Below, in pieces: positions 40,492 to 46,959 of a DNA stretch of 64,000 nucleotides; position 1 is the stretch's first letter; every line of letters starts with the position of its first letter. This DNA comes from an uncultured archaeon (GTDB lineage: Archaea; Thermoproteota; Nitrososphaeria; Nitrososphaerales; Gagatemarchaeaceae): contig CAWFOU010000007.1 of the NCBI GenBank assembly GCA_963817525.1, positions 768,001 to 832,000 on the forward strand. The letters are read 5' to 3'. A model generated the notes under the pieces. The model was not told where the DNA came from. It did not search any database and was given only the letters and a program-made list of their open reading frames with translations. A program made the translations under genes and the position numbers.

Positions 40492-41091
40492 TGGATGGGC
40501 CGATAAATACGGCGAAGCTCTGCTATAACGTTGGCTTCTCTGAGACTCTGCAACAGGTGCAAGCGGGAATTACCGATTTGTGAATTCTATACTCAGCCAT
40601 CTGGAATCCGTCGCATCTGCAAAGAATGCGATAATGAATACTCGAGAAACTATCACAAAACACACCCCGAATACGATAAGCGATATGAGAAGGAATACGC
40701 GAGGAGGAACCCGAAGAGAAGATGGGCAACGGCTTGCTTGTCAGGCCATCGTAGAAATGGATACATCACCGAAATCACATCTAAGGAACTCTACCAGATT
40801 GCCTGCAAAACGGAACTTTGCTTCATCTGTGGATGTCAGATAGACTGGCAGCTGGGTAACAAGGGTCACATGCACAACAAGAGTCCAACCCTAGACAGGC
40901 TGGACAACGGAGATACGATTAGGAGCGGTAACGTCCTAATCATGTGCTACCAATGCAACGCGACGAAGCGCGACAGAACCTTGAAGGAGTTCCTAGACTA
41001 TTGCAGGGTCGTTACTGCAAATTTGCTACTCACACTTAGAATACCCGCAATTGGTACATTTATAGCAACCGCTTTCGAAGATTATTGCATT
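40492..41091 (+). mobile_element. Putative homing cassette: HNH-like gene plus recoded nrdJ 3' end
   Basis: AT-rich block between two copies of the nrdJ terminus. Confidence 0.65.
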
Positions 41092-41202
41092 CTCGTTGCA
41101 GTCGGGGCAAGTGCCTCCGCGCATCAGGGGTACGGACGACTCCTTGTTGACCTTGCCCGAGGTGAGGACCTCGAGCGCCTTGGCCACCGCGTCAGGGATT
41201 GA
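40531..41202 (+). CDS. Free-standing HNH/EndoVII-like endonuclease
   Basis: CNRC...CKEC zinc ribbon; CFIC...SPTLDRLDN...NV..MCYQCNATK; tail overlaps nrdJ antisense. Confidence 0.82.
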   Translation: MASLRLCNRCKRELPICEFYTQPSGIRRICKECDNEYSRNYHKTHPEYDKRYEKEYARRNPKRRWATACLSGHRRNGYITEITSKELYQIACKTELCFICGCQIDWQLGNKGHMHNKSPTLDRLDNGDTIRSGNVLIMCYQCNATKRDRTLKEFLDYCRVVTANLLLTLRIPAIGTFIATAFEDYCILVAVGASASAHQGYGRLLVDLARGEDLERLGHRVRD

Positions 41203-43317
41203 GAGCAGCTGGACCCCCTCCTCCCAGGAGACGTACTTGCCGCGGATGCCCTTTAGCATCTTCACGACGCTCTGGATGTCCCCGCCGTGCTGGAGGTAGA
41301 GGCTGATGAGCCTGCCTATAGCCTCGGCGTCGGCTTTCTCGTCGCCCCCTAGCTTGCCCAGGGTCACGAAGACCTCCTTCAGGGTGCCCGCCTCGTCCGA
41401 GTTGGCGGTGACGTAGAGCCCTCCCTGGGGCAGCTTGAGCTTCAGCGTCCGCCCGGTCATCACCTTGGGCCTCTCGAAGGCCGTGGGCGCCTCCTGCTTC
41501 GGCTCGGCCCTAGCGGCCGCCGCGCCCGCCTCCTTCTTCTTGTCGACGTTGGCCGTCTCGAGGATGCCCTCCCTGCTCCCCTCCCTGTAGACCGTGATGC
41601 CCTTGCACCCGAGCTTCCACGCCTGGAAGTAGATCTTGGCGACCTCCTCCGTGGAGGTGTCCTGGGCGAGGTTCACCGTGCTGGAGATGGCGGTGTCGAT
41701 GTGCTTCTGGATCGCGGCCTGCATCTTCACCCTCATCTCGGGCTTGATCTGGTGGGCCGTCACGAAGTACGAGGGCAGGGAGTTCTCGTCGGTGATGCGG
41801 AATACGCGCATGTACTCCTTCACGAGCGGGTGCCAGACCTTGAACTCGCCCTCGCTCAGCGACTTGCTCCTCCTCGTGTAGTATAGCGCGAAGACCGGCT
41901 CGACCCCGCTGGACGACCCCACGAAGATGGAGCCAGACCCGACCGGGGGCACCGTCGTGAGCGCAGAGTTCCTGATCCCCTGCGCCCTGATCTTGTCCTT
42001 GACCTTCGAGTCGAGCCTCTTGATGAAGGGCTGCGCCAGGTGCTTGTCAGCGTCGAAGGCGGGCGCCGGGCCCTTCTCCGTCGCGAGGTCGGTGGAGTAG
42101 TCGTAGATGATGTTCGTGATCCTGCTGAAGAGGCTGTCGACGAAGTCGACCGTCGCCTCGTCGTCGTACTTCATCCCCAGCTTGATCAGCATGTCCCCTA
42201 GCCCCGTCGTCCCGACGCCCACCCTCCTGGACCACAGGGAGGCCTTCTTCTGCTGGGGGAGCGGGTGCTTGTCGGCGTTGTAGTCGAGGACGTTGTCGAG
42301 GAACCTCGTGGCGTGCTGAGCAGCCATGGTGAGGCCGCTCCAGTCTATGCTGGCGCGGTCGGTGAACGCGTCCTTCACGAACGAGCTCAGGTTTATCGAG
42401 CCCAGGCAGCAGCAGCCGTAGTTCTCCAAGGTCTGCTCGCTGCACGGGTTGACGCCCTCCACCGCCATGCCGTTGTACTCGGTCGTCGAGTCCCTCTTGA
42501 TGGTGTCCCAGAAGATCAGGCCGGGCTCGTCGCTCTGCCAGGCCGCCTTTACGAGCTGATTCCAAACGTCCCTGGCGCGGACAGTCTTCTCGAACTTCAC
42601 CTTCTCGTTCTGGAACCTGAGGGTGAAGTCGGAGTCCTTCTCCACCGCGTTCATGAACTCGTCGGTGATCTTGACGGAGATGTTCGCATAGTTGACCTTC
42701 TTCAGGTCCTTCTTGACGTTGATGAAGTCGAAGATGTCGGGGTGGTCTACGCGCAGCGTGATCATCAGGGCGCCCCTCCTGCCCGCCTGCCCTATCGTCC
42801 CCGTCGTGGTCGATAGGAGCTCCATGAACGAGACCGAGCCGGAGCTGAAGATCGCCGAGTTGTTGACGGGCGTGCCGCGCGGCCTCAGCAGGGAGATGTC
42901 CGTGCCGACTCCGCCGCCGAAGCTGTAGGTCCTCGCCGCCTCCTTGCACCAGTCGAAGATGCCCTCTATCGAGTCTTCCCTGATCTTGAAGAAGTAGCAG
43001 TTGAGGAGCGTAGACCGCCTGGGCTGGCCTGCGCCGAACATTATCCTTCCGCCGGGTACAAATTTGAAATCGTCAAGTAGCCAATAGAACTTCTCCGTCC
43101 ATTCGTTCCTCTTCTCGTCGTTTACCTCAACCGAGGCGAGCTCGCGCGCCACCCTCCGCCAGAGCTGCTTCGGGGTCGTCTCGACCTGCTTGCCTGACTC
43201 GTCCCTCAGCGCGTACTTTTCGTAGAAGACCCGCGACCTGAGCTCGTCGCCGCCGAAAGCCTCGAGCGTCTCCTTTGGTAGGACGACCTCGGGCGCCTTC
43301 TGGAGCTGCTGCTCCAT
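41026..43317 (-). CDS. nrdJ: Class II (B12-dependent) ribonucleotide reductase
   Basis: FVPGGRI, LLNCY, RRGA, NPCSEQ, CCLGSINL, GVEP, KGITVYR, C-terminal CxxC..CxxCGYSKC; SD-supported ATG 43317 (ORF open to 43428). Confidence 0.96.
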   Translation of the reverse strand: MEQQLQKAPEVVLPKETLEAFGGDELRSRVFYEKYALRDESGKQVETTPKQLWRRVARELASVEVNDEKRNEWTEKFYWLLDDFKFVPGGRIMFGAGQPRRSTLLNCYFFKIREDSIEGIFDWCKEAARTYSFGGGVGTDISLLRPRGTPVNNSAIFSSGSVSFMELLSTTTGTIGQAGRRGALMITLRVDHPDIFDFINVKKDLKKVNYANISVKITDEFMNAVEKDSDFTLRFQNEKVKFEKTVRARDVWNQLVKAAWQSDEPGLIFWDTIKRDSTTEYNGMAVEGVNPCSEQTLENYGCCCLGSINLSSFVKDAFTDRASIDWSGLTMAAQHATRFLDNVLDYNADKHPLPQQKKASLWSRRVGVGTTGLGDMLIKLGMKYDDEATVDFVDSLFSRITNIIYDYSTDLATEKGPAPAFDADKHLAQPFIKRLDSKVKDKIRAQGIRNSALTTVPPVGSGSIFVGSSSGVEPVFALYYTRRSKSLSEGEFKVWHPLVKEYMRVFRITDENSLPSYFVTAHQIKPEMRVKMQAAIQKHIDTAISSTVNLAQDTSTEEVAKIYFQAWKLGCKGITVYREGSREGILETANVDKKKEAGAAAARAEPKQEAPTAFERPKVMTGRTLKLKLPQGGLYVTANSDEAGTLKEVFVTLGKLGGDEKADAEAIGRLISLYLQHGGDIQSVVKMLKGIRGKYVSWEEGVQLLSIPDAVAKALEVLTSGKVNKESSVPLMRGGTCPDCNENAIIFESGCYKCTNCGYSKCE

Positions 43318-43627
43318 CACCTCTCCTTCTTTTTTAGATTCAACCTCAGTTGTCAAATGTGAAATCGCGCACTCTCTCCAATCCTGACCTTTATCTGGTT
43401 CTTGGTGGACGATTCCTTCACCAGACATACCCTTAAATGTTATTTCGAGCGTGTGTTTCTCAAGAAAGCTACCGTTACCCGCGGCTTACGCTCATCATTT
43501 CATCGGTGAAGGAAAGATACTGGCATGCCCGAGTGAAAACTGGGGCCGGAGCCTTGGCGGGCTCACGTCAAACTCTGGCGGCGCTGGGGTCCTGGGAGTG
43601 ATCCGGGCGGTCCAAGAATCCCGATCG

Positions 43628-43655
43628 CATCCTGTCAACTCTAGTTGACAGGATG
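43628..43655. promoter_or_regulatory. Perfect 13-bp inverted repeat upstream of nrdJ
   Basis: CATCCTGTCAACT-ct-AGTTGACAGGATG. Confidence 0.65.
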
Positions 43656-43674
43656 TCAAACTGTTTTTGCTAAA

Positions 43675-45762
43675 TTATTCCGCTGTCGAATATTGCGCGG
43701 TGGCGGTCGACCTGCACTTGGTGCACCTCTCGGTCTTCGCGGGCAATTTTGACCCGCAGTTGCGGCAGAACGACACTATCTTCTCGATCCCGAAGAACTC
43801 GAGCTTGGCAGTCGCGCCCATCGTGAGGTTGTATATCCCGCGCATGTCGAGCGACGTCGCGTCGAGGTAGACCGACAGCCCTGCCGCGGCGCCCTGGCTG
43901 AGCTTCGAGATGTAGCCCATCGTCTCGGCGTTGTTGAGGTCCTCCATCGTCAGCCTGGCTGCCTGCGAGTATCCCCTCTTCTCCAGGCTCTGGAGGTTCG
44001 CCCTGCCATACCTCTCCGAGTCGAGTGCGGCCAGCCTCCCCGCCCCCTCCGCCTCGATGAGCGCTATCCCCAGGCGCTCGCTTTTCCCCGACCTCTCGGC
44101 TGCGGACTGCGCGGCGGTCCCCAGTACCTTCGCGGCGAGCTCCGCCCTGGCGCCGGGGGCTGCGTCCTTGCTCAGGCCGAAGAGGGCCTCGTCGAGCCCC
44201 ACCAGGTTCATCACTAGCGGCATCTCGTCGGAGCTCACGTTGTCCGACCCGAAGCTCAGCGCGGGCAGCAGCCCCTTGTTCATCACCCTCTCCAGGAGGC
44301 GCCTTCGCGTGATCAGCGCGTCCGACGCGACTCCCATGAGCATGGATAGCTTCGCCCTGAAGTACGTCTCGTCCTGGTTCGACTCGTAGGAGAGCCTCGG
44401 GAGGTTGATGCTCAGGTTGTGCAGGACGCTGACGTTGTCGGCCTGGTGGTCCGCCGGGAGGATGTCGAGGTTGATGCCCAGGGAGCTCCTCTTCTGCCCT
44501 GAGGGGAAGAACGCGACCTTCCCGCCGTGAAACGCTATCGCCGCCGCGTCCTTGAGGTAGGAGCTGTCTTCCGACTTGTTCGGTTTCGCCAACAGGAGGC
44601 GGACCTCCGGCCTCGGGACCTGCTCGACGTAGTCCCTGTATGCGTCGAGGGTCGCGGCGAGGGTCTTCTCCATGAGCTCCCGCCCCGCGTCGTCCTTGGC
44701 GTAGATGTCCAGCTGCAGGGTCACCGAAGGCCTCTGGGTGGGCTGGAGCACCGAGGAGACCTGGTCGAAGAACTTGACGAGCGCGTCTGCCACGTCGCGC
44801 TTCGTCCTCGACCTGGTGAACTGCGCGAGGTACTGGAGGAAGTTCCTGTAGACAATCTCCTGGTTCGCCTCCTTCTTGATGAGGGGGGTGATGTTTGAGA
44901 TGACGTTGATGGCCTCCTCCAGGTTCCCGGGGCTCTGGAGCATCGGGACGCCGGGAAGCCTCCCCTTAGGGTTGAACCCCGACGCGCGGACTGAGAGGAG
45001 GTCGAGGAATATCGTGTCGGGGAGGAGCGCCCACGTCCCCGCCTCCGAGATGTGGATGTCCCCGTTGAGGTGGGCGTCAGAGACGTCCCTGGGGAGCTGC
45101 TCGAGGAGGAGGTACTCGGAGAAGACGGACTTGCCCGTCTGGTGCAGCAGGGACTCCGCGTCCCCGCCGTCGCCCCCCGCCTTGGCGAGGAGCTGGGTGA
45201 CGTCGAACACGGGGAGGCCGAGTCGCGTGAGCTTGTGCCTGTACTCCTCGAGGTTCTGCTCGACGAGGAGCGAGTTGACCATCTCCCTGATGAGGGGGGC
45301 GGTCAGGTACTGGGTCTGGAACTTGTAGAGGCGGGACTCCGTCTCGCTGGTGATCTTCTGGGCGAGCTCGACGGGCATCCCCGCCTCCTTGACCAGCGAC
45401 TGGAGGATCTTGTCCGCGTTGAACTCCTCCATGGCCTGGCGGGTAGTCCTGACGTAGAGCTTCCCGCTCTCGATGAGCGACTGCTCCTCTATCTGCCGCG
45501 TGAGGTTGAGGACGAGCCTCCCGAGGTTGGTGACCGTGTACTTGCGCTCCTGCCTGTTGAGCTGGATGAGGAGCTGGCGGACGAGCTTCCTCAGGTGGTA
45601 GGCGAACTTGCCCGACTCCTTCTTCGACTTGAATCCGGCGAGCGACTTTAGCGCGCTGTAGGTGAGAGGGCCCTTGACGTTGAGTATCTTTAGGATCTCC
45701 AGCCTCTGCGGAGAGGCGATGACGCTGTAAATTGTCCTGACACGGCGAGGAGCGGCTTGCAT
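43675..45762 (-). CDS. wHTH-ATP cone-NrdD-like protein lacking glycyl-radical motif
   Basis: ArsR-like N-terminus (RLEILKIL...FAYHLRKL), ATP cone, TRLGLP, AHLNGDIH, SINLPR, CRNC/CTKC, no RxxGY. Confidence 0.85.
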   Translation of the reverse strand: MQAAPRRVRTIYSVIASPQRLEILKILNVKGPLTYSALKSLAGFKSKKESGKFAYHLRKLVRQLLIQLNRQERKYTVTNLGRLVLNLTRQIEEQSLIESGKLYVRTTRQAMEEFNADKILQSLVKEAGMPVELAQKITSETESRLYKFQTQYLTAPLIREMVNSLLVEQNLEEYRHKLTRLGLPVFDVTQLLAKAGGDGGDAESLLHQTGKSVFSEYLLLEQLPRDVSDAHLNGDIHISEAGTWALLPDTIFLDLLSVRASGFNPKGRLPGVPMLQSPGNLEEAINVISNITPLIKKEANQEIVYRNFLQYLAQFTRSRTKRDVADALVKFFDQVSSVLQPTQRPSVTLQLDIYAKDDAGRELMEKTLAATLDAYRDYVEQVPRPEVRLLLAKPNKSEDSSYLKDAAAIAFHGGKVAFFPSGQKRSSLGINLDILPADHQADNVSVLHNLSINLPRLSYESNQDETYFRAKLSMLMGVASDALITRRRLLERVMNKGLLPALSFGSDNVSSDEMPLVMNLVGLDEALFGLSKDAAPGARAELAAKVLGTAAQSAAERSGKSERLGIALIEAEGAGRLAALDSERYGRANLQSLEKRGYSQAARLTMEDLNNAETMGYISKLSQGAAAGLSVYLDATSLDMRGIYNLTMGATAKLEFFGIEKIVSFCRNCGSKLPAKTERCTKCRSTATAQYSTAE

Positions 45763-46013
45763 GTCTTCACACGCATGGAGTCTAAACTATATAATGATGA
45801 CATCACCGAGAGTCAAATAAAATCCACTCCCTCTGATGGAATGGCCGACGATATCGTAAGATTGGGCATAGTGTAGATTTCGCCCGCAGCACACGATGCT
45901 TACTTGACGAGTTCTTCCTCAGCTTGCTAAATGACCGAAGATTCTCAACCAGCTCCCAGAACTCATCGTAGCTCCTGCCTCTACGATAGACCTGCAAGAG
46001 CTGCTTGACAAGA

Positions 46014-46218: not shown

Positions 46219-46371
46219 TGGTGGGGTCGCCCGGATTTGAACCGGGGGTCTCAAGCGCGCTCGGACTAAGCAAAAGCGATTTTGCCGTAGTCTCCCAAGG
46301 CTTGAAGCCTAGACCAGACTAGCCCCGCGACTCGAGCAGCAGCCCGATTATGCGGCCTAGCCGACGACCCC
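46219..46371 (-). tRNA. tRNA-Pro(TGG) with canonical intron (46258-46293) and non-canonical 15/16 intron (46319-46356)
   Basis: Spliced GGGGTCGTCGGCTAGTCTGGTCTAGGCTTCAAGCCTTGGGCGCTTGAGACCCCCGGTTCAAATCCGGGCGACCCCACCA; both introns form BHB motifs. Confidence 0.93.
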
Positions 46372-46416: not shown

Positions 46417-46959
46417 GTGCGGGCTGTTTCAATACGCAGTTCCAGAATCGCAATAATGGCCTATCTAATCGGATTATTTGATGGCGAAGGCTGCCTGACA
46501 ATAAACGTCGAGAAAGACAAGAGGAAAGGAGCTATTTCAGAAGTCGGAGCATGGAGAATAATCCCATGCGTCCAATTCACCAATTCGGATAACGCCCTCG
46601 TCTTGGCGATTGACAGAATGCTCAAGACTCTTGGTCAGCATCCCACTATCCAAAGATATCCAAATGGGTCGGCTCACGTTAGACTCTGGCGTGCAAGTGA
46701 AATCGAGGCATTTTGTAGAGAAGCCATGATGTTTTCGAATGGCGCCAAATCGGCGCAGCTCTCCATATTCATCAACAAACTAATCCCCATTTTCGAATCT
46801 CGTCCTCTCATGGGCAAGAGAGGAGGAAGGATTTGGACCACGACGCTGTTTCTCCAAGCAATGACTCTGATAGATGAGATTAATCAATTCAAGAGAAGTC
46901 GAAGGACGGCTCGTCGTTACAGCCGGGCATACTTCGCAGCGCTCTGGAATTTGCAGTAG
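46417..46959 (+). CDS. Free-standing single-motif LAGLIDADG homing endonuclease
   Basis: AYLIGLFDGEGCL, VQFTNSD; AT-rich. Confidence 0.92.
   Translation: MRAVSIRSSRIAIMAYLIGLFDGEGCLTINVEKDKRKGAISEVGAWRIIPCVQFTNSDNALVLAIDRMLKTLGQHPTIQRYPNGSAHVRLWRASEIEAFCREAMMFSNGAKSAQLSIFINKLIPIFESRPLMGKRGGRIWTTTLFLQAMTLIDEINQFKRSRRTARRYSRAYFAALWNLQ

Follow-up and report, generated by a model that had tools for sequence, protein, structure and literature searches.

The locus and the architecture of the regulator protein

We analyzed a 64,000-nucleotide stretch (hereafter the window) from the genome of an uncultured archaeon of the family Gagatemarchaeaceae, order Nitrososphaerales (GenBank assembly GCA_963817525.1, contig CAWFOU010000007.1, positions 768,001 to 832,000). 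Our subject is a gene, here called the regulator gene, that an initial annotation of the window had described as an apparently inactive class III ribonucleotide reductase (RNR) fused to a DNA-binding domain and as a candidate sensor of deoxynucleoside triphosphates (dNTPs). The genes and protein domains at the locus, in window coordinates, are as follows (wHTH, winged helix-turn-helix; AF2, AlphaFold2; dN/dS, ratio of nonsynonymous to synonymous substitution rates).

43675..45762, minus strand: regulator gene, 695 aa, with wHTH, ATP-cone, predicted dead NrdD barrel and Zn ribbon (open reading frame, translation, Pfam, AF2 model)
45508..45732, minus strand: wHTH of ArsR/SmtB type, residues 11-85 (DUF7347, fold matches, dN/dS)
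45241..45456, minus strand: ATP-cone, residues 103-174 (PF03477, model, dN/dS)
43702..45147, minus strand: NrdD-like alpha/beta barrel, predicted to be catalytically dead, residues 206-687 (PF13597, Foldseek, VIA)
43714..43767, minus strand: Cys4 zinc ribbon (C666, C669, C680, C683), with the chain end after it (family alignment)
41026..43317, minus strand: nrdJ, class II B12-dependent RNR with TSCPD domain and C-terminal Zn finger, 763 aa, start revised to the ATG at 43317

The initial annotation had recognized a wHTH, an ATP-cone and an NrdD-like barrel without the RxxGY loop, and all of these are borne out by Pfam, by alignment and by the AF2 model. DUF7347 (wHTH) matches residues 11-85 with 37.1 bits (cut-off 27.6); HTH_20 scores 23.3 bits, under its cut-off of 27. 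PF03477 (ATP-cone) matches residues 103-174 with 28.0 bits (cut-off 25.8), and the NRDD profile PF13597 matches residues 206-687 with 93.7 bits (cut-off 26.2). The NRDD match covers profile positions 13-531 of 562, so that the last ~30 positions of PF13597, which include the glycyl loop, are missing from the regulator. The product of the open reading frame (ORF) ends in CRSTATAQYSTAE, followed by the stop codon. Pfam zinc-ribbon matches at residues 663-687 are weak; the Cys4 ribbon is nearly invariant across the family, and C666, C680 and C683 are common to true NrdD.

The same architecture is found throughout the family, with DUF7347 in 38/38, the ATP-cone in 38/38 and NRDD in 37/38 of the members surveyed. 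The family ATP-cone motif VRTSxxxxEEF...LIRE...YRxxLTR is invariant, and an adjoining true NrdD has the same motif. Short forms consisting of wHTH and ATP-cone gave 507 matches; most of the 120 listed come from short contigs as fragments or bear the label 'partial'.

The AF2 model of the regulator, built on the 38-sequence alignment, has a predicted local distance difference test score (pLDDT) of 85.8 and a predicted template modeling score (pTM) of 0.73. Its ATP-cone part is predicted as a beta-hairpin plus helices. The best Foldseek matches of the full model are all class III RNRs (9dca_A, 1e-21; 4col_A, 2.7e-20), with 8p2s and 1h79 both at ~1e-17. In VIA-align, the model superimposes on S. 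thermophilus NrdD with Z 32.0 over model residues 102-695, and on T4 NrdD (1h78) with Z 31.1 and a root mean square deviation (rmsd) of 2.9 Å over 453 residues; class I RNRs (Z 19-22) and PflD (~19) rank lower. The model points to the ten-stranded barrel fold of RNRs and glycyl-radical enzymes in the regulator.

Residues 1-190 folded alone reached a pLDDT of 87.9. The top Foldseek row for this N-terminal model is the NrdR chain 9a6n_B, matched in its ATP-cone part (E 3.8e-3, weak), and comparisons with NolR, ArsR, HlyU, CzrA, SmtB and CadC gave a TMt of 0.62-0.80 and an rmsd of 1.8-3.7 Å, with weak E-values. A family profile searched against the PDB matched chains of HlyU, NmtR, CadC, ArsR and NolR (E 1e-3 to 3e-2).

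The regulator has lost the catalytic residues of class III RNR

We compared the residues of 22 family members with those of 21 true NrdD from the same phylum, 3 of which adjoin family members and 18 of which were fetched separately. The regulator differs from true NrdD at the following positions.

45013..45015, minus strand: Thr250 at the position of the conserved beta-A cysteine (alignment with true NrdD)
44473..44475, minus strand: Ile430 at the position of the finger-loop thiyl-radical cysteine (alignment with true NrdD)
45043..45054, minus strand: HISE (residues 237-240) replacing the HxHD substrate-triphosphate motif (alignment)

The alignment of catalytic Cys and Gly that the initial annotation had proposed as a check shows both cysteines and the glycine to be lost. 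The radical glycine is present in 21/21 true NrdD and 2/22 family members, and the SR[IV]xGY loop was found in 18/18 of the separately fetched true NrdD. The chain end of the regulator, S692-T693-A694-E695, aligns to S-R-(V/I)-x of the SRxxGY loop, and the glycine position is never reached. Outside the order, the place of the former glycyl loop is often taken in family members by a degenerate tail, such as SRLFDRY, SRVSAKH or ARTENMF, so the loop was lost gradually, and in the window's lineage it has been trimmed away in full.

The beta-A cysteine is found in 21/21 true NrdD and 0/22 family members, the regulator having Thr250 instead. The finger loop of NrdD is described with the motifs MGCR/MCCR (PMC9669993); it reads QCCR or QCCA in the true NrdD compared here and LGIN in the regulator, with Ile430-Asn431 at the CC columns. 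The two columns of this cysteine pair are kept in 0 and 1 of the 22 family members, and a GC[RK] finger loop, judged by eye, is retained by two distant members. The HxHD motif, reported to bind the substrate triphosphate in P. copri NrdD (PMC11226230), is HIHD in the true NrdD neighbors and HISE in the regulator, and an alignment with S. thermophilus NrdD concurs. None of the family members examined has all three radical features together.

Counting a column as invariant when 20 or all 21 true NrdD agree gives 59 columns, of which the regulator retains 19, sharing N453-P455-R456 (the NLPR motif), E525, D581 and Y598 with true NrdD. On TIGR02487, the NrdD equivalog, it scores 77.9 bits against a cut-off of 326.35. 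Judged by these residues, the regulator cannot be a reductase.

The genome encodes no detected activase and a single ATP-cone

The window's genome (2.82 Mb, 95% complete, 8.75% contamination) contains one NRDD match, which is the regulator gene itself. No NrdG (TIGR02495) was found above the cut-off, the best match reaching 44.8 bits against 131.15, although at 95% completeness the absence of NrdG is not certain. The initial annotation had noted that no nrdG lies adjacent, and none of the 14 ORFs scanned around the regulator is a radical S-adenosylmethionine (SAM) gene. It had also named a trans-encoded radical domain as evidence that would speak against its reading; the glycyl-radical domain PF01228 was not found in the genome at E<=0.1.

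The two best NrdG-like matches in the genome were rejected as NrdG, one being MoaA and the other a member of the viperin family. A prokaryotic viperin-family radical SAM protein lies outside the window at G000 C7:333134-333991 (L002:1150-2007, minus strand; NF038283, 241 bits against 180). Also outside the window, three radical-SAM-like ORFs of 572 aa (G000 C7:44932, C10:9033 and C14:5943; L005-L007) score 33.3-33.7 bits to NrdG2. An identical 17-mer occurs near all three (C7:43169, C10:12490, C14:7968), and they represent either a multi-copy segment or assembly redundancy, the genome being 8.75% contaminated.

Exactly one ATP-cone match was found in the genome, on the regulator, and consequently no NrdR was found there. 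The NrdR family is also absent from the 11 NCBIfam matches of the regulator at E<=1. By these sequence criteria, the regulator is neither a member of the NrdR family nor a functional NrdD.

We considered whether the protein is still an enzyme, either a class III RNR or another radical enzyme with a trans-encoded radical donor or unknown chemistry. This is very improbable: its full barrel and Zn ribbon are under purifying selection (see below) and it shares the above barrel residues with true NrdD, but it has lost both cysteines, the glycine and HxHD, the genome search recovered neither NrdG nor a PF01228 domain nor a second NRDD match, and one taxonomic family yielded regulator relatives in 43/43 genomes and no true NrdD.

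Selection is strongest on the wHTH and the ATP-cone

dN/dS was estimated by the Nei-Gojobori method between the window sequence and nine relatives, with dS near saturation for some distant pairs.

wHTH: dN/dS 0.01-0.05, identity 94-100%
ATP-cone: dN/dS 0.01-0.08, identity 87-100%
Barrel: dN/dS 0.13-0.35, identity 50-88%
Zn ribbon: dN/dS 0.04-0.39, identity 50-95%

In the 38-sequence family alignment, all 32 invariant columns fall within residues 20-234. In the barrel, the four zinc cysteines are kept along with N453-P455-R456, G522, E525, D581 and Y598. Such a distribution agrees with a protein that works through its wHTH and ATP-cone and uses its barrel as a constrained scaffold.

The divergence of the barrel, with 19 of 59 NrdD-invariant columns left, could be read as the mark of a decaying pseudogene or an annotation artefact. 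We give this next to no credence, for the 695-aa frame is open and of equal length in dozens of relatives, dN/dS is far under 1 in every domain and the AF2 model has high confidence. Rather than decaying, the gene is maintained, most strongly at the N-terminus.

The family is widespread and usually precedes nrdJ in the order

A protein search returned more than 5000 relatives of the regulator. Among the best 120 of these, almost every protein has 694-707 residues and the same three Pfam domains, and the sources are metagenome-assembled genomes of Nitrososphaerales or Thaumarchaeota; the closest relative named to genus is from Ca. Gagatemarchaeum (74% identity). The initial annotation had expected misannotation as anaerobic RNR, and public records do carry that name: these 120 are called 'anaerobic ribonucleoside-triphosphate reductase', the same with '(formate)', or 'ArsR family transcriptional regulator'.

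We surveyed 301 genomes from the phylum and found a regulator homologue in 215 and a true NrdD (E<=1e-70 to TIGR02487) in 162. Counts for five taxonomic families are given below.

Family f2: regulator 43/43, true NrdD 0/43
Family f11: regulator 11/11, true NrdD 0/11
Family f17: regulator 18/18, true NrdD 3/18
Family f4: regulator 0/13, true NrdD 13/13
Family f27: regulator 1/8, true NrdD 8/8

By taxonomic family, the regulator and true NrdD are uncoupled. Two frames of 772 and 782 aa (G240:C4:18648-20324 and G264:C9:33387-35009) score 329.9 and 327.4 bits against the TIGR02487 cut-off of 326.35. They are probably members of the regulator family, judged by score; the equivalog rule would name them true NrdD. 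The 782-aa frame of L050, which has no radical glycine, scores 325.6 bits.

The position directly upstream of nrdJ, noted in the initial annotation, holds widely: the next gene on the same strand is the class II RNR in 26/29 loci of the same order. For closer loci whose downstream DNA extends 900 nt or more, a strict gap rule places nrdJ directly downstream in 67/74. The other seven comprise four in which the two genes are adjacent with overlapping stop-to-stop frames, one fragmented, one convergent and one at a contig end. With this conserved linkage and no NrdG above the cut-off in the genome, the proposed check of nrdJ co-occurrence and nrdG absence came out as anticipated.

The family spans the phylum beyond nrdJ-bearing aerobes and elsewhere adjoins true nrdD and pyrB/pyrI. 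At 19 loci of other families, true nrdD is adjacent in 3 (twice together with a glutaredoxin gene) and nrdJ in 1; pyrB, pyrI or both are found within 3.5 kb in 8, and a further locus has an ambiguous carbamoyltransferase. A gene of the amino-acid-kinase fold is adjacent in 2 and a dCTP deaminase gene in 1. Altogether, 11/19 loci have a nucleotide-metabolism gene within 3.5 kb (12 counting the ambiguous carbamoyltransferase) and 7/19 have none.

The 7/19 loci with no such gene, and the weak ATP-cone match, would suit a DNA-binding regulator that neither controls RNR nor responds to nucleotides, its ATP-cone and barrel being relics and its linkage to nrdJ historical. We regard this as unlikely for three reasons. 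The ATP-cone matches the wHTH in conservation, with dN/dS of 0.01-0.08 and 33 invariant columns across residues 20-187; a nucleotide-metabolism gene is nearby at 11/19 distant loci; and repeats occur at the nrdJ promoter, as described below.

The nrdJ gene and its promoter region

nrdJ scores 544.9 bits on NrdJ_Z TIGR02504 (cut-off 399.95) and 362 bits on Ribonuc_red_lgC; neither Pfam nor the genome-wide profile search detected an ATP-cone in the window's NrdJ. The longest ORF, starting at 43428, is over-extended by 37 codons (43318-43428, minus strand): relatives show the extension to be non-coding, as locus L062 has an in-frame stop in it and conservation is at the level of DNA, not of protein. 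When the 8 closest sequences are aligned, the conserved ATGGAGCAG stands at the revised start, 43317, with GGAG ahead of it. Two further elements upstream of this start were annotated.

43388..43395, minus strand: inferred TATA-like box GATAAAGG of nrdJ (conserved in the alignment; GATATATA in more distant relatives)
43352..43363, minus strand: TTCACATTTGAC, two further half-sites in the putative nrdJ leader (conserved in the close-relative alignment)

Inverted repeats occur at the nrdJ and regulator promoters

Three candidate operator sites built from GTCAA/TTGAC-like half-sites were found around the regulator gene, the third at its own putative promoter.

43634..43659, unstranded: site A, composite inverted repeat TTGAC-N5-GTCAA-N6-TTGAC (palindrome and genome pattern counts)
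43405..43421, unstranded: site B, GTGAA-N7-TCCAC (conserved block in 8/8 aligned close relatives)
45798..45827, unstranded: site C, at the regulator's own promoter, GTGGA-N6-TTGAC-N10-GTCA (conserved in the window and the 7 closest loci)
45788..45794, minus strand: putative TATA box TTATATA of the regulator gene, ~26 nt before the ATG

Site A lies 16 nt past the regulator stop codon, as the core of a perfect 13+13 palindrome at 43628-43655. The window's genome has TTGAC-N5-GTCAA twice and GTCAA-N6-TTGAC twice, and the two patterns overlap solely at site A. Among 42 loci (the window and 41 relatives), 28 have GTCAA-N6-TT[GC]AC within 130 nt after the stop, compared with a background of 12 matches in 819 kb, or 0.0019 per 130 nt; the other 14 mostly have one-mismatch variants.

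Site B lies 9 nt upstream of the TATA-like box GATAAAGG. Its equivalent in more distant relatives is GTCAA-N7-TCAGC, followed after 8 nt by GATATATA. Site C ends 3 nt before the TATA box of the regulator gene and was also recovered as a genome-wide motif match at C7:813812. In the regulator promoters of other clades, TTGAC stands just after the TATA box, as in TTAAATACATTTGACC, and in the distant member L057, GTCAA-N6-TTGAC adjoins the TATA box of its own regulator promoter.

A related pattern is found in a family resembling ammonia-oxidizing archaea (AOA-like), whose regulator proteins are 42-44% identical. There, GTCAA-N5-TTGAC with at most 1 mismatch occurs ~120 nt after the stop in 13/27 loci, with 0.016 expected per 230 nt and 0/27 for spacers of 4, 6 and 7.

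The docking of a dead NrdD on the ATP-cone-less NrdJ, lending it dATP/ATP control at the protein level while the wHTH is secondary or otherwise used, has three facts in its favor: NrdJ has no ATP-cone while the sole genomic ATP-cone sits on the regulator, the two genes are tightly paired, and ATP-cones contributed by a different subunit are described (PMC5794259). It leaves unexplained the extreme conservation of the wHTH and the conserved inverted repeats at both promoters, and the family also occurs beside nrdD and pyrBI, or unlinked to any RNR. We consider docking as the explanation distinctly improbable; a role on NrdJ alongside, or instead of, DNA binding is possible.

Other elements in the intergenic regions

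Between sites A and B, at 43455-43535 (minus strand), lies a block of ~70 nt, CACTCGGGCATGCCAG...GTAAGC...GGTAACGG. It is conserved in L061 and L132 and partly in L065, is absent from L062 and L064, and has no Rfam match. A search of the intergenic regions for riboswitches and known RNAs returned only a sub-threshold tRNA match.

That match belongs to a tRNA-like element upstream of the regulator (46230-46325, minus strand), with an Rfam tRNA score of 20.2 bits against a gathering score of 29; ARAGORN reports none. The 3' part of this element, GGTTCAAATCCGGGCGACCCCA, recurs at the same position upstream of the regulator in many related loci, and the element may be an intron-containing archaeal tRNA. 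Beside it, at 46417-46959 (plus strand), is a 180-aa ORF with LAGLIDADG endonuclease-like matches (PF14528, 31.7 bits).

In L012-L039 of the AOA-like family, the intergenic region between regulator and nrdJ carries the palindromes TATGAAGTTCATA and GATCA...TGATC upstream of the GTCAA-N5-TTGAC site. The palindromes differ from it, and a second factor may act at the nrdJ promoter in this family.

A 15-mer, GTCAACTATGTTGAC, or a close variant of it, was found inside ORFs of more than 900 aa at L183, L186, L184 and L174, in three AOA-like genomes. It was rejected as an operator and attributed to coding-sequence conservation.

A proposed model for nucleotide-dependent control of nrdJ

We propose that the regulator is probably a nucleotide-sensing transcription regulator of nrdJ, analogous to NrdR and of unrelated architecture; that it binds DNA and nucleotides is deduced from its domains and from the repeats. 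Its residues and fold indicate descent from NrdD, independent of the origin of NrdR. A quick maximum-likelihood tree also splits the 22 regulators and 21 NrdD by one branch with a Shimodaira-Hasegawa-like approximate likelihood ratio (SH-aLRT) support of 100, on an alignment that takes in wHTH columns present only in regulators. In this scenario, a class III RNR bearing an ATP-cone would have been duplicated, gained a wHTH of ArsR type at its N-terminus and given up radical chemistry. Its barrel, dimeric in real NrdD, would have been kept as a scaffold, and the regulator would form a homodimer in which two wHTH domains are held so as to read GTCAA/TTGAC inverted repeats. The putative targets are site A after the regulator stop, site B at the nrdJ TATA box and site C at the regulator's own TATA box. 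The ATP-cone would report the ATP/dATP state by altering DNA binding or oligomerization, and transcription of nrdJ and of the regulator itself would be set by that state. Because the sites abut or overlap the B recognition element (BRE) or the TATA box, repression and autorepression at high dATP would be favored over activation.

Several observations weigh against this proposal, beginning with nucleotide binding. The ATP-cone score barely exceeds the Pfam cut-off, and neither the family profile (E<=0.1) nor a single-sequence search retrieved an ATP-cone chain from the PDB. The canonical K-R of the ATP-cone hairpin aligns, as read by eye, to T-T, and the Arg one position before it is invariant; this ATP-cone is therefore not assured to bind nucleotides. 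The family motif differs from the Lys7/Arg8 pattern described for P. copri NrdD (PMC11226230).

Further points concern the repeats, which some other factor could recognize instead. Their motif was taken from the window before its occurrences in relatives were tallied, and these kin do not count as independent. A regulon extending past the nrd locus was looked for and not detected. In the window's genome, the loose motif GT[CG]AA-N6-7-T[TC][GC]AC has 73 matches against 31 in a reversed-sequence control, and none of 17 ORFs flanking such matches belongs to nucleotide metabolism; they include a glycoside hydrolase, Usp, L16 and an ELP3-like protein. In five AOA-like genomes, perfect GTCAA-N5-TTGAC occurs 4, 0, 4, 2 and 8 times against 12, 1, 12, 5 and 4 in the controls and is unenriched. 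Of 12 inspected AOA-like palindrome loci, only the nrd locus (L175) is clearly intergenic and promoter-like; L182 is at the boundary between two ORFs and most others are inside ORFs. The motif was found in 0/18 regions upstream of unlinked nrdD, a weak test given that these regions are only 59-353 nt long.

On the other side, every prediction of a repurposed enzyme that could be checked in sequence data held, namely residue loss, no activase or trans radical domain found in the genome, selection, synteny and repeats, and we retain control of nrdJ transcription as the likely function of the regulator. A more far-reaching version is tentative, and we would sooner doubt it than accept it: that an entire allosteric RNR was turned into a transcription factor in an ancient archaeal family, the ATP-cone reading ATP/dATP and the barrel dimer reading dNTP effectors at the old specificity site. 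The allosteric logic of RNR would then set the transcription of nrdJ/nrdD and, elsewhere, pyrBI, making the protein an archaeal counterpart of NrdR.

Significance and comparison with known systems

To our knowledge, the transcriptional control of ribonucleotide reductase in archaea is largely unknown. The regulator is a conserved and abundant candidate for this role in ammonia-oxidizing archaea and their relatives, testable with one protein and three short DNA sites. If the proposal is true, the regulator would clearly exemplify a complex radical enzyme that lives on as a pseudoenzyme sensor. The systematic misannotation also matters, as aerobic archaea are credited with an 'anaerobic RNR' that is absent from them, which distorts metabolic and oxygen-tolerance inferences from metagenomes. 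The parts of the literature accessible to us, including the available text of PMC3019208, PMC9531940, PMC9669993 and PMC11226230 and with subscription journals mostly uncovered, describe no archaeal NrdD that bears a wHTH or lacks the glycine.

The closest functional parallel is bacterial NrdR, whose tetramer loaded with dATP and ATP is described as binding two palindromic boxes, and which is reported for most bacteria and only some archaea; in S. coelicolor, an nrdRJ operon has nrdR directly upstream of nrdJ (PMC9110341). Like NrdR, the regulator joins an ATP-cone to a DNA-binding domain, its gene lies directly upstream of an RNR gene, and palindromic repeats occur at the RNR promoter and at its own. 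Unlike NrdR, which consists of a Zn ribbon and an ATP-cone in ~150 aa, its DNA-binding part is an ArsR-type wHTH, and its only Zn ribbon is at the C-terminus, where it corresponds by homology to the NrdD ribbon. It also carries a dead NrdD barrel of 490 residues, and its candidate operator half-sites, GTCAA/TTGAC, were derived from the window rather than by comparison with NrdR boxes.

With ATP-cone-bearing NrdD (S. thermophilus 9d3x/9dca, P. copri 8p2s, T4 1h78), the regulator shares its predicted fold over residues 100-695 (Z 28-32), the ATP-cone, the Cys4 Zn ribbon, the NLPR motif and several barrel residues. It differs in having no glycyl loop, finger-loop Cys or beta-A Cys, in its degenerate HxHD and in its extra wHTH; no activase was found in the genome.

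The wHTH fold and profile matches are those of the ArsR/SmtB repressors (NolR, HlyU, CzrA, SmtB, CadC), which are dimeric readers of inverted repeats. In the regulator, unlike in these repressors, the wHTH makes up only the first 95 of 695 residues.

A precedent for an enzyme-derived transcription factor is NrtR, described as a Nudix-related regulator of NAD genes (PMC2330246). As described there, NrtR resembles the regulator in combining a wHTH with an effector domain from an enzyme of the regulated pathway and in being named as an enzyme in databases; the regulator differs in its enzyme fold and pathway, and in having the ATP-cone as a separate sensor module.

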